Of a stretch of 64,000 nucleotides of DNA, positions 21,123 through 24,784 are shown piece by piece. Below the pieces are notes generated by a model. It searched no databases. It was not told where the DNA came from and worked only from the letters and a program-made list of their open reading frames with translations. The DNA is from an uncultured Bacilli bacterium (GTDB lineage: Bacteria > Bacillota_I > Bacilli_A > RF39 > UBA660). The position numbers and the translations under genes were made by a program. The DNA lies in NCBI GenBank assembly GCA_947629315.1, contig CANRDB010000001.1:4829-68828 (forward strand). Direction: 5' to 3'. Position 1 is the stretch's first letter. Each line of letters starts with the position of its first letter.

Positions 21123-23120
21123 TTGAATCAAAAAAGAGTGGCATTATATCTACGATTATCCAAAGAAGATATCGACAAGCCAACCAAGTTCTCTATCAGC
21201 GAAAGTATCAAAAATCAAGAACTATTACTGCGTGAAGAAGTGAAAAAACACCCTGATTGGGTCGTAGTAGCTGTCTATTCTGATGAAGACTTTTCAGGAG
21301 CAGGAACTTATCGACCAAGCTTTGACAAAATGATTCATGCCTGTGAAAAGCACATGATTGATATCATTCTCTGTAAAAGTCAGTCCCGTTTTTCTAGAGA
21401 TATGGAATTAATTGAAAAATATATTCATAACAAATTTAAAGAATGGAATATACGATTCATTAGTATCGTAGATAATGCCGATACTGATAACGATGGCAAT
21501 AAAAAATCTAGACAGATTAATGCTCTTGTCAATGAATGGTTTCTAGAGGATTTATCCGATAATATTCGGGCAACTTTACGAACAAAATGGCAGCATGGAG
21601 AATGTACCGCTGCTTTCGCTAAATATGGATTTCTAAAAGATCCCCAACATAAAAATCACCTAATCATAGATACGGTTGCTAGTCAAACCATTCAAGAAAT
21701 TGCTCATCTCTTTTTAGAGGGAAAAGGTCCAGAAACCATCGCTCACATTTTAGAACAGAAGCATATTCCTAGTCCTTATGAATACAAACTACAAATGGGA
21801 AGTAAACTAAAAATTCCTTTGCTTTCCTTAAACCATCCAAAAATAATTACTAAAAACGGAAAATATATTTTTACCCTTTTTCCAAGTGGAGAACCAATAG
21901 ACCATGTCGTCCTATCCATCCTACCATTTCAAGATTACGATATGACACTAACTCTCATAAAACAAAGTGGCAATGTAAAGGTTTATTATTCCCAGGAGAA
22001 ATTCTCTTCTGCTATCGAAACCGTATTGCCGGTTGAACATTCTTCATTTTGGAGACAATTGCCTATCAATCTTTCTATTTCTCATATTCAACTACTGGCT
22101 ATCTATTGTCTTCCAAACAATTTAGAAAAAACTTATTTAGAATGGGAAATAAACATCCATACCCTACCGTCTCATGATTTTTCTTTAAACATCCAATCCT
22201 TTGATGCAATACACCAACCAATTGATTTTTGGCAGTATCGAATCAGAAAAAAATATCAGTGGAATAGTCGGACAATCTATCACATTTTGAAAGATGAAAC
22301 TTATCATGGTACCTTAATTCAAGGAAAAACAAAGCGAATCAGTTATAAAAATCATACTAGTATTGCTACTCCCAAAGAGCAATGGTATGTTCAAGAAAAT
22401 ATTCTCCCTAAAATTCTAGATGATCAAACTTGGATAGCTATTCAAAATAAATTACAACTACATCCACGCGCAAGCAAAAATGGAAAACACCCTATCTTTA
22501 CTGGAAAAGTTTTTTGTGGAGTATGTGGAAAACCTCTTCAAAAAAACTCGAGCAGTTCTCTTGCTTCCCCTGTTAAAAAAGAATATTTAATTTGTAAAGC
22601 AAGAAAAGAACATTGGAAGAATTGTGAAAACAAAAAATCATTTCCCGTTTTAGAATTACAAAAATTAATCATTACTCAATTTCAAAATTTATGGAATTCC
22701 TATTACGATATGACTACCTTAAAGCAGATTCATAAGGAAGAACCCCATCATCAAACTATAGACGATCTCATGAAAGAAGAACAAAATTTACAAGAAATTA
22801 TCCAGCAGAATAACCAAATTCTTTATCAATTATACAAAGATAAAAGCACTGGCCTCATGGATGATTCTTGTTTTCATACCCTACTTCTACAAAATCAACA
22901 GGAAATGGATACTTATCACCAAAGATTGCAAATGATTGCCCAAGAGTTAAAACAGATTCAAACGAAACAGGAATTTTTCATGTCTACTGTGTGTGAATTT
23001 CTCAATACTCATTCCTTTGAAGACTATTTTTCAACCATTCTACAGCATTTTATTAGCAGCATTTTCATTGGAAAGCTGAACCATCATCAAAGAACAATCC
23101 AAATTCATTGGAAAATCTAA
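21123..23120 (+). CDS. Large serine recombinase Rec1 (665 aa, TTG start)
   Basis: [12 protein letters not shown] (catalytic Ser), [10 protein letters not shown], a recombinase domain, a zinc ribbon (CGVCGKP...[11 protein letters not shown]), a coiled coil and a C-terminal IQIHWKI tail. AGGAG SD 7 nt before the TTG. Carries about 150 extra aa compared with Rec2. Confidence 0.9.
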
Positions 23121-23160
23121 TTTTGTGGTTTATGTCTTTGCAGCAACTGGTCCTACGGGG
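23121..23160. other. attR of IE-1
   Basis: TTTTGTGGTTTATGtctttgcAGCAACTGgtcctacgggg. The arm starts 1 nt after the Rec1 TAA stop. Confidence 0.65.
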
Positions 23161-23263
23161 GCAACTGGTGCAACCGGTCCTACGGGGGCAACTGGTGCAA
23201 CCGGTCCTACTGGAGACATTGGTCCTACTGGTGATGTTGGTCCTACTGGTCCTACCGGAGCAA
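23147..23263 (+). pseudogene. Collagen-like gene segment 2 of 4 (117 nt, no start or stop of its own)
   Basis: Reads (a)ct GGT CCT ACG ... = [38 protein letters not shown](T). It is flanked by the 3' ends of the convergent Rec1 and Rec2 genes. Confidence 0.7.
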
Positions 23264-23288
23264 CTGAACCTTATCTGTTTGTCAAAAT
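23250..23288. other. attL of IE-2
   Basis: cctaccGGAGCAACTGaaccttatctgtTTGTCAAAAT. The 10-nt core GGAGCAACTG is shared with attR2, and the arm overlaps the Rec2 stop codon. Confidence 0.7.
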
Positions 23289-24784
23289 ATCCACTCTATA
23301 GTAACTACTCTTTTTCCCTGTTCTATATTGCCAATTTGTATTCGTTGAATAAAATTCTTTACCGTCTTAAGGGAAAGTTCAAGTTTTCTTTTAGAAAAAG
23401 AAAATGACATTTGTTCTTTTTTCATATTGGCAAGAGTATTTGATAACTTCTCTAACTCTTTGATATAACTTTTTTTGAGATTTTGAAAAACCTCATCATC
23501 TAGTTGTTGTTGAACATAATCGTCATACACTTTTTTTAAGCCTCGTTCTTTTTGATGGTAATCTTTTTCTAATCGTTCAAATTCTTTCTTATATAATAGA
23601 TTCTGTTCTATACTATATTGCTTCTCATATTCTAAAAGCAATTGTTCGTCGACAAATTGATGATAAAACTTCAAAAATTCTTTGAACACTAAAGATTCTA
23701 TCACATCCAAACGAATAGAGGTATGATTATCACAATGTTGCCAATAACTTCTTCTATCACGACAAACTAAATACGAATACACAGAATGGCTAGAAGAATT
23801 TTTTTCAAAGGATTGTCCACATTTTTGACAATATATTTTTTTACTAAACTCATAAATTTTACCCGTTTTAGATTGAATTCTCGTCTTTTGTTGCATTCTT
23901 CTTTGTACCTCATTCCACATCGATAAAGAAATAATCGGGTCATGCTGATGAGATACAACAATCCAATCCTTTTTTTGAAGAGAAATTACCTTTTTATTTT
24001 TATAGGAAATTTTTCGATATTTTCCCTGTACTACACTACCAATATACACTTCATTTTTTAAAATATCTGCAATTGTTTTTTCACTCCATTGATTACTAGT
24101 CGATGGTCCATAATATTTAGAACCTATTTCTTTTTTATATTGACTGGGAGTTGGAATCCCTTGATGATTCAAACACTGCTTAATTTTAGAATATCCATAA
24201 CCTTTCGCATATAACGCATATATTTGTTGAACATATTTAGAAGCAATCGGGTCAATTTCTAAATGATTTTTATCTTTCTTTTGGTAACCAAAAGGCGCAA
24301 AAGAACCGGTAAATAGACCAACTTCTTTTTTATTTCGTAATGTTTTACGAATATTTATAGAAGAATCTTCCAAATACCATTCATTCATCAAAGCATTGAT
24401 TTGTCTGGTTTTTTTATTTTCTTCTACAGAGGTATCAGCATGATCAACTAAACTGATAAAACGAACGTTCCACTCTTTAAATTTATTATGAATATATTGT
24501 TCAATTACTTCTAAATCTCTCGAAAAGCGAGACTGACTCTTACATAATACAATATCAATATTTCCTTGTTCACAATCTTTTAGCATGCGGATAAAAGCTG
24601 GTCTTTCTCTATCGATACCAGAGTAATCCTCATCAATATAAATATCAAAGATATCCCATCCTTCTTCTTGAACTTTTTGAAGTAACATTCTCCTTTGATT
24701 TTGAATACTTTCACTAAAGTCTTTTTTATCAATATCTTCTTTGGATAATCGCAAATAGATTGCTACTCTATTGTTCCCTATCAT
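23282..24784 (-). CDS. Large serine recombinase Rec2 (close paralog of Rec1)
   Basis: [36 protein letters not shown] (near-identical in Rec1), zinc ribbon CQKCGQ...[11 protein letters not shown], and the tail VVTIEWIF. The ORF track extends to 24796. MIGNNR at 24784 has the better SD (GAGGA). Confidence 0.9.

Follow-up and report, generated by a model that had tools for sequence, protein, structure and literature searches.

Stacked large serine recombinase elements with recombinase-adjacent attachment sites in a collagen-repeat gene of an uncultured gut Bacilli bacterium

Introduction

Several genes of spore-forming bacteria are known to be split by elements that a large serine recombinase (LSR) mobilizes. 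In Bacillus subtilis, mother-cell-specific LSR excision of SPbeta from spsM (SprA with SprB) and of skinBs from sigK restores a gene for a spore-envelope protein or a sigma factor (PMC4191935, PMC5499854). In Clostridioides difficile, the attL junction of the skinCd element has been amplified from a primer inside the 3' portion of the LSR gene CD1231, and a mini-skin derivative keeps the CD1231 3' end (PMC5025042). The gin element in gerE of Bacillus cereus ATCC 10987 is a non-prophage element with an LSR, GirC, and a tiny motif-less factor, the 42-amino-acid (aa) GirX (PMC5595907). In heterocyst cyanobacteria several elements may occupy one gene (nifD, fdxN, hupL; nifBHDK of Calothrix NIES-4101 is in 13 parts), and all are removed in the terminally differentiated cell (PMC4874684, PMC11249958). 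Here we describe a locus of an uncultured spore-forming gut bacterium in which one collagen-repeat surface-protein gene is split into four pieces by three small mobile elements, each with its own LSR (Rec1, Rec2 and Rec3). It lies in a 64,000-nucleotide (nt) stretch of an uncultured Bacilli genome (assembly GCA_947629315.1, contig CANRDB010000001.1, positions 4,829 to 68,828 of the forward strand), called the window below; all positions are those of the window.

The placement of an attachment site beside its recombinase gene has precedents. In phage TP901-1 (X85213), the int coding sequence spans 1240-2697 and the 50-bp attP spans 2700-2749, with the core at 2723-2727, so that attP starts 3 nt past the int stop; Bxb1-type phages differ, in that attP lies at the other end and overlaps the annotated 5' end of int. 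Durrant et al. (2022) used the distance from LSR to att site as a quality filter and found that diverse LSR clusters target one conserved site (PMC10083194). The locus described here belongs to the LSR class of gene-intervening or integrative elements, in which the adjacency principle is already known. What is notable is that several LSR mini-elements and lineages are stacked, and recurrently so, in one collagen-repeat gene.

Results

A collagen-repeat gene in four pieces

Matches to the collagen-type repeat (GGTCCTACNGG; 36 found, 0.6 expected) fall on the + strand in four places (~18550, 23149-23258, 26112-26149 and 29445-29815), which correspond to four segments of one gene. Segment 1 (18448-18701, +; 254 nt) encodes an N-terminal domain, a short GPT run and a TIGTTTTGAPG...NFVIPAGAT module, with homologous N-termini in relatives. 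Segment 2 (23148-23264, +) has 117 nt, or 39 codons of unbroken G-X-Y, and segment 3 (26102-26146, +) is shorter still, with 45 nt and 15 codons. Segment 4 (29444-29834, +) consists of 388 nt plus a TAA at 29832-29834 (391 nt) and carries a long GPT/GDV/GDI array and a C-terminal TIGTVTT... module. In the present state the open reading frame (ORF) of segment 1 reads into the first element and stops at 18715-18717, after DAMS. When the segments are joined in silico at the AC dinucleotides described below, 254 + 117 + 45 + 391 nt give a 268-aa ORF that is in frame, with Gly-X-Y unbroken; each of the four pieces keeps the frame and a perfect Gly periodicity. Pfam finds the Collagen repeat in the rebuilt protein (PF01391, E = 6.6e-21). 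The order of modules agrees with that of uninterrupted homologues in related gut metagenome-assembled genomes (MAGs; loci from other genomes are cited as L001 and so on). These homologues (e.g., L028, L022 and L011) have an N-terminal domain, a short collagen run, a TIGxxTTGxPG...NFVIPAG module, a long array and a C-terminal module.

Between the segments lie element 1 (18702-23147; 4446 bp), with an O-acetyltransferase-like gene and Rec1; element 2 (23265-26101; 2837 bp), with a gene for a 342-aa protein, a 49-aa ORF and Rec2; and element 3 (26147-29443; 3297 bp), with a gene for a 464-aa repeat protein, a 30-aa ORF and Rec3. All three recombinase ORFs are intact: Rec1 (21123-23120, +; TTG start) has 665 aa, Rec2 (23282-24796, -) 504 aa and Rec3 (27831-29420, +) 529 aa. 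We classify them as LSRs because the Pfam domains and the Y-x-R-L-S catalytic motif are present. Resolvase (PF00239) is matched with E = 7e-19, 6e-24 and 4e-17, respectively, Recombinase (PF07508) and Zn_ribbon_recom (PF13408) exceed the Pfam cut-offs in all three, and the catalytic motif aligns throughout as Y-x-R-L-S-K-E. The PHROG integrase family phrog_95 is matched by each as well. Rec1 and Rec2 are 54% identical in the catalytic half and 29% in the DNA-binding half, and Rec3 shares about 30% identity with either; the three belong to distinct lineages. As members of the LSR class they are predicted to have unidirectional attP x attB activity, with excision dependent on a further factor. 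Rec1 also contains an insertion of ~140 residues between the catalytic and recombinase domains (residues ~235-375, window 21750-22250), which is present in its 630-690-aa relatives; Rec2 and Rec3 are without it.

Attachment sites

The elements are flanked by short direct repeats that hold an AC dinucleotide (GGAGCAACTG and GCAGCAACTG for element 1, GGAGCAACTG at both ends of element 2, and CCTACTG and GCAACTG for element 3), and the AC, within CAACTG or CTACTG, is common to all six sites. In element 1, attL1 (18672-18729) comprises a B half-site, the AC crossover at 18700-18701 and a P' half-site whose arm, CATAAATCACAAAA at 18713-18726, pairs with the arm TTTTGTGGTTTATG (23121-23134) in the P half-site (23121-23145) of attR1 (23121-23175); there the AC at 23146-23147 is followed by a B' half-site in collagen repeats. 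In element 2, attL2 (23235-23292) has a B half-site, AC at 23263-23264 and a P' half-site with the arm TTGTCAAAAT (23279-23288), conserved in L001 and L003. Its partner attR2 (26072-26129) has a P half-site with the arm ATTTTGACAA (26076-26085), which is conserved in L003, followed by AC at 26100-26101 and a B' half-site. In element 3, attL3 (26117-26174) has a B half-site, AC at 26145-26146 and a P' half-site with the arm AAAGTGGCAC(T) at 26159-26168, and attR3 (29414-29471) has a P half-site with the paired arm (A)GTGCCACTTT at 29419/20-29429, overlapping the last Rec3 codons, then AC at 29442-29443 and a B' half-site. All six arms are intact.

The inverted arms are symmetric about the AC dinucleotide at 11 nt (element 1), 14 nt (element 2) and 12 nt (element 3). 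Over 28-nt half-sites, P and P' are identical at 21/28, 18/28 and 21/28 positions, respectively, against 7.7 +/- 2.4 for random pairs, for which P(>=17) = 3e-4. The attB halves are weaker (9-15/28 matches), and the shared cores have 4-10 nt. Excision is predicted to leave the chromosomal junctions CCTGCAGGAGCAACTGGTCCTACGGGG (attB1), CCTACCGGAGCAACTGGTCCAGTAGG (attB2) and CCTACGGGTCCTACTGGTTCTACTGGAG (attB3), and the circular elements would carry the junctions GTCTTTGCAGCAACTGATGCTATGTC (attP1), GAACTATGGAGCAACTGAACCTTATC (attP2) and GAATGGTTTGCAACTGCACTCACTTA (attP3). Two other placements were tried. A TGCA core for element 3 is in frame and symmetric and was rejected, as it breaks the Gly (G-X-Y) periodicity, and placing the element 1 junction at the AATTTTGTG(A/G)TT repeat would destroy the conserved NFVIPAG motif and was likewise rejected.

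Convergent recombinases and an AC core common to six sites might also be expected of a DNA-inversion or shuffling switch that, like a shufflon or invertase, produces collagen variants. The two sites of each element are, however, in direct orientation with equal core polarity, which predicts excision. Moreover, the arms of the three elements are unrelated to one another, the DNA-binding halves of the recombinases are only 25-30% identical, and no alternative collagen cassettes are present. Such a switch is hardly credible here.

The anatomy and origin of the locus are instead likely to be those of three LSR mini-elements, each with attP adjacent to the 3' end of its recombinase gene, that were inserted independently in separate repeat units. 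Each would have entered at the AC inside (G/C)CAACTG or CCTACTG, which is a Thr-Gly codon boundary of the collagen repeat. The circular form would carry an attP of ~50 bp immediately 3' of the LSR gene, and with attP in that position the LSR gene becomes terminal and outward-reading upon integration. By LSR precedent, the outer P arm would be the target of the zinc-ribbon domain. The 117-nt and 45-nt pieces would then be by-products of independent insertions into neighboring repeats, with the Rec1 and Rec2 elements inserted in opposite orientations that appear to follow AC/GT core polarity. In the 45-nt segment 3, two B-type half-sites of ~20 bp barely fit.

The B half of attB1 (18672-18699) contains AATTTTGTGATT, which encodes LNFVI and resembles the element 1 arm AATTTTGTGGTT (compare 23118-23145). 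It sits 3 nt nearer the core than AATTTTGTGGTT, consistent with the known motif offset between attB and attP of LSRs. The sequence suggests that Rec1 may target the boundary between domain and repeat specifically, and not any repeat unit.

Recombinase stop codons and attachment sites

A first-pass annotation of the window had proposed that the stop codon of every recombinase touches its att arm, and in the window this stands for all three. The Rec1 TAA (23118-23120) abuts the attR1 arm at 23121, so that the gene ends at -26 from the core center; the Rec2 TGA (complement of 23282-23284) lies within the attL2 arm (23279-23288), at +18 to +20; and the Rec3 TAG (29418-29420) overlaps the attR3 arm, at -24 to -22. 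The sequence and the ORF table together bear out the further claim of one order in all three elements, recombinase 3' end, outer arm and core, with no spare DNA between them. The same is true of the proposal that segment 2 is the 117 nt left between two convergent recombinase ends, since all DNA between the Rec1 and Rec2 stops is either att half-site or collagen piece. On re-reading of 22900-23500 against the ORF table, all ORF, stop and arm coordinates given by that annotation proved correct.

The annotation had also held that transcription out of Rec1 or Rec3 continues into collagen-coding sequence. A consensus terminator scan, which is a simple method, found nothing terminator-like on the + strand of 18300-31000 or between the convergent stops, and RNA folds of 23105-23300 (z = -0.05) and 29405-29500 (z = +0.14) were no more stable than shuffled sequences. 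Since no terminator is predicted and no unusual RNA structure is seen, read-through from Rec1 and Rec3 into collagen sequence is permitted and may be possible; no function is indicated. One could nonetheless suppose a functional coupling, in which LSR genes that read outward without a terminator tie recombinase expression to the collagen gene. Variants of this idea have the collagen promoter reading through element 1 to Rec1 and on to Rec3, silencing by convergent Rec1 and Rec2 transcription, or autoregulation of an LSR at its own 3' end. The two scans just described, and the co-orientation of Rec1 and Rec3 with the collagen gene, are in keeping with it. Ordinary phages, however, show an equal layout with no need for coupling, relatives of the elements insert in either orientation, and the gap between stop and collagen sequence in one Rec1-like locus (L008) holds a short GCCT/AGGC hairpin-like repeat (by eye); the simplicity of the terminator scan also counts against the idea. 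We regard coupling as improbable.

Relatives of the locus

A scan of one genome per species with the conserved N-terminal module of the collagen protein yielded 36 loci, mostly from gut MAGs of uncultured Bacilli, 'Tenericutes' or Clostridia. A protein search with the N-terminal domain returned only proteins of at most 149 aa, probably through length bias, and was not used for a ratio of interrupted to intact genes. The Rec1 3' end, the 117-nt piece and Rec2 (97% identical) recur in L002, an independent ENA assembly, with identical translated products, including that of segment 2. A chimeric MAG contig, in which recombinase contigs were joined through collagen repeats, might otherwise be suspected, because such repeats are prone to misassembly and exact-product look-ups of Rec2 and of a 100%-identical Rec3 match gave no contig. 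Because L002 reproduces the arrangement, a chimeric contig is excluded. Arms kilobases apart are also in exact register, and analogous architectures occur in several other genomes; the chance that the locus is an artefact is very slight.

In the Rec2 family, L002 (97% identity), L001 (86%; GCA_947632115) and L003/4/5 (48%; GCA_947628235) keep the TGA inside TTTTGAC(A/T)AA, 14 nt from the GT/AC core. As in the window, L001 and L003/4/5 show the convergent arrangement with a collagen N-terminal fragment. L003 contains both ends of a Rec2-type element of ~5 kb, whose far arm, ATTTTGACAATGAACTATG, is conserved and whose join is in frame. In the Rec3 family, 4/6 of the complete relatives retrieved (52-61% identity) abut collagen repeats: in L046/L049 (54%) and L047 (57%) the TAG is followed directly by TGCCACTT, 12 nt from the core, and in L048 (55%) the Rec3-type arm begins 6 nt after a TAA stop. 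Among Rec1-like proteins (34% identity), the stop-to-collagen junction measures 19 nt in L006/7 (to CAGTTG). Outside the three families, an LSR beside collagen repeats in Clostridium methylpentosum has 43 nt. Wherever such an element sits in collagen sequence, its LSR gene is at the end and points outward. The orientation of insertion in these relatives goes with the AC or GT reading of the core relative to the recombinase, as LSR chemistry predicts for a quasi-palindromic target.

Relatives of Rec2 are also borne by phages. In IMG/VR, two groups (~7 and ~22 contigs; 37-38% identity) have an imperfect palindrome that begins 2-3 nt inside the stop; the first group reaches 18/20 matches and the second 11-14/20 (variable-center scan; 99th percentile of the null, 15); an example is AAGTTCTGTAAAATCTGGTG-N7-CACCAGATTATATAGAACTT. 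Across L144-L177, the first ~50 nt past the LSR stop hold an imperfect palindrome of ~47 bp, with outer GTTC...GAAC and inner ATCTGG(T/C)(G/A)..., which is probably attP. The palindromes of L164 and L172 look like terminators and were not counted. No relative of the Rec3 family was found in IMG/VR.

Thus the expectation that homologues conserve the stop-to-att adjacency is borne out in the collagen-inserted Rec2 and Rec3 families and in the phage relatives, and fails as a universal rule (L008, L135, L045 and L051; see below). Because the attP of TP901-1, the attL of skinCd and the phage-borne Rec2 relatives share the adjacency, the layout is not peculiar to this locus. Judged from these sequences, adjacency of stop and att site is an inherited LSR architecture, neither locus-specific nor a new principle. 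The compaction would have been inherited with it, as it is retained in relatives of each family and follows the same design as the TP901-1 int-attP region.

Cargo and neighboring genes

The cargo of element 1 (18743-20977, -) is a 744-aa Acyl_transf_3 protein, O-acetyltransferase-like, with a weak sub-threshold GDSL-like match. That of element 2 (24984-26012, -) is a 342-aa protein that has hydrophobic stretches and in which zinc-ribbon matches stay below threshold; L003 has a 343-aa gene at the equivalent element end, with similarity confined to the 5' end and the upstream DNA. Element 3 carries a 464-aa repeat-rich protein (26257-27651, +) that is hydrophobic at its N-terminus and matches no family. 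Good sigma70-like promoter matches for the cargo of elements 2 and 3 are seen at 26036-26063 (-) and 26200-26228 (+), 12-31 nt from the inner edge of the att arm; both ends of these two elements are therefore tightly packed.

Two small ORFs are candidate directionality factors. One, of 49 aa and acidic (24768-24917, -), overlaps the Rec2 start; it is conserved in L001/L002, and the small ORFs that precede Rec1-like genes in L006 and L008 are its homologues. The other, of 30 aa (27732-27824, +), lies directly 5' of Rec3 and is conserved upstream of the Rec3 relatives in L045, L050 and L051. Known LSR directionality factors are unrelated in sequence and have no common motif (PMC12286644), and such a role for these small ORFs is plausible from their position and conservation. 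Pfam and PHROG scans found no phage structural, packaging, lysis or replication genes in the three elements, and the only informative PHROG matches were the three LSRs (integrase/invertase) and the element 1 acetyltransferase (O-antigen acetylase, 'moron'). By gene content, the elements are not temperate prophages.

A GT2 + TPR glycosyltransferase gene (29840-30925, +) starts 5 nt past the collagen stop and probably forms one operon with the collagen gene; L003 has an equivalent neighbor. Directly 5' of the collagen gene lies a SecA-like gene (14652-18366) that is split into ORFs of 238 and 988 aa where the frame shifts by 1 nt within an A-run (ttaaaaaatgaa, 15358-15369). L001, L003 and L135 have this gene as one ORF of 1124-1163 aa, and the break could reflect slippage, a pseudogene or an error in sequencing. 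A promoter-like TTCATTA - N18/19 - C(A/G)TAnnnTA (18385-18440) shortly precedes the ribosome-binding site of the collagen gene and is conserved in L001, L003, L126, L129 and L132; its -10-like part, C(A/G)TAnnnTA, is conserved in six genomes and resembles the sigmaK/sigmaE mother-cell consensus. The ORF at 30961-31899 (-) was considered as a second collagen gene and rejected, as it encodes a Pro/Ala/Val-rich membrane protein. An Rfam scan of 17000-32500 found no RNA family, and no tRNA target is present in the locus.

Discussion

Fixed insertion or developmental excision

An LSR acting with a directionality factor would be expected to excise each element precisely. Because SpoIIIAH and GerM-type genes (Germane) are present in the window, its gene content points to a sporulating host; GerE, SpoIIIAH and Germane are found in the syntenic L003 and L125-129. 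Excision in the mother cell during sporulation, by analogy with skin, SPbeta and gin, is a possibility that we put forward tentatively. In its favor are a GPT-rich collagen gene with an adjacent glycosyltransferase, whose product resembles glycosylated proteins of the spore surface, the C(A/G)TAnnnTA motif, and frames that are intact to either side of the element in a relative whose recombinase is only 48% identical. The rebuilt protein has a GPT-triplet-rich G-X-Y region, as do the BclA-type exosporium glycoproteins. Pfam gives the Collagen repeat only, with no BclA C-terminal domain and no N-terminal exosporium-targeting motif, and the termini are formed by a ~40-aa TIGxxTTGxPG...N(F/L)xIPxG module that differs from the BclA termini. 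On its sequence the collagen protein is BclA-like in style only. It is somewhat more doubtful still that this is a spore-surface gene put together solely in the mother cell, through three independent and mutually orthogonal LSR excisions that act as a three-lock switch, and that the stacking recurs as a maintained feature, not as debris, in a clade of uncultured gut Bacilli (the window, L003, L135 and others). If this were so, partial excision would possibly yield variants of the collagen protein that differ in length or completeness.

A number of observations weigh against the interpretation as independently inserted, recombinase-adjacent and excisable elements. The shared core of element 3 has only 4 nt, and ACTG was chosen within this ambiguity for keeping G-X-Y. 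The Rec3 relatives in L045 and L051 are followed by other genes, not by collagen, and in the Rec1-like L008 the stop and the collagen sequence are about 70 nt apart. In L135 (4300-7160 of that locus; GCA_947626855.1), a fourth LSR lineage, of 526 aa, 38% identical to Rec3 and with phospholipase-C-like cargo, sits in the same collagen gene with 23 nt from stop to arm. It is followed by a collagen piece of ~27 nt and then by a degenerate Rec2-type junction (GGAGCAACTG..TGTCAAAAT) that lacks an intact recombinase. In L125-L132 and L139 (e.g., L126 7280-7330), the N-terminal collagen fragment ends at CCTACTG/CTCGATTGTTTAA with no recombinase beside the junction, and genes for UPRTase and a uracil permease follow, which are the cargo of the Rec2-type element of L003. 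Scans of Pfam, NCBIfam and PHROGs gave no match for the small ORFs or, beyond the sub-threshold matches, for the 342-aa and 464-aa cargo, and thus no recognizable directionality factor, and no small upstream ORF was found in element 1. The proposed link of the collagen gene to sporulation would be one of analogy, as the protein has no spore-specific domain, and the conserved upstream neighbor, an accessory SecA-like gene, could instead indicate an exported vegetative glycoprotein.

Some of these points are what one would expect if the elements were fixed, parasitic insertions. The dispensable, repeat-rich gene would be a safe harbor with many quasi-palindromic attB-like sites, the adjacency would be historical, and the collagen gene would be inactivated or only its 89-aa N-terminal fragment made. 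The junctions without an LSR and the degenerate end in L135 indicate that insertions can become fixed, and L135 further indicates that stacking of elements in the collagen gene recurs and that elements can decay. The missing small ORF of element 1 and cargo genes unrelated to sporulation fit as well. Set against this, however, the three LSR ORFs and the six arms in the window are intact, the four pieces are in frame with Gly periodicity, and the Rec2-type element of L003, 48% identical in its recombinase, lies between intact in-frame halves, which argues for a maintained, restorable gene. Fixed or parasitic insertion seems rather unlikely. The independent insertion of three mini-elements in separate repeat units remains the reading that we favor.

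The adjacency itself mainly confirms a design rule, according to which attP lies directly 3' of the recombinase gene in many LSR elements and may share its last codons; the rule is useful for predicting att sites from sequence alone. With the locus, a collagen-repeat surface-protein gene joins the LSR-split genes of spore-formers, with three lineages in one gene and pieces down to 117 and 45 nt. A repeat array with quasi-palindromic Thr-Gly codons would serve as a multi-copy landing pad. The three compact and apparently orthogonal LSR/attP/attB sets, with a common AC core and mapped sites, are candidate tools for genome engineering.

Comparison with known systems

The closest parallel for the layout is TP901-1, which resembles Rec1 in the order and spacing of stop, outer arm and core, its core lying 26 nt downstream. 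TP901-1 is, however, a temperate phage with a single insertion that is not known to split a developmental gene, whereas the elements in the window have 2.8-4.4 kb, one cargo gene each and no phage genes. Among gene-intervening elements, skinCd (LSR CD1231, directionality factor CD1234, target sigK) is likewise an LSR-mobilized element of a spore-former with the recombinase 3' end at attL, and its excision restores an ORF, as excision of the window elements does in silico. Unlike them, skinCd is a single prophage-like element in sigK, for which the directionality factor and sigmaE/SpoIIID control have been demonstrated. The gin element offers in GirX a factor comparable in size to the 30-49-aa ORFs that precede Rec2 and Rec3, but it sits singly in a regulator gene of 225 bp, has extra recombinases, and its developmental excision is proven. 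SPbeta and skinBs differ from the window elements in being large (pro)phage elements, one per gene.

To our knowledge, several element lineages that co-occupy one gene have otherwise been described only for heterocyst nif genes. The cyanobacterial elements are nevertheless unlike those in the window, because their edge recombinases read inward (co-oriented at the beginning and opposite-oriented at the end; PMC4874684), and about half of these elements have tyrosine recombinases. The LSRs compared by Durrant et al. are alternative occupants of one site across genomes, whereas in the window three lineages occupy separate repeat units of one gene within a single genome.

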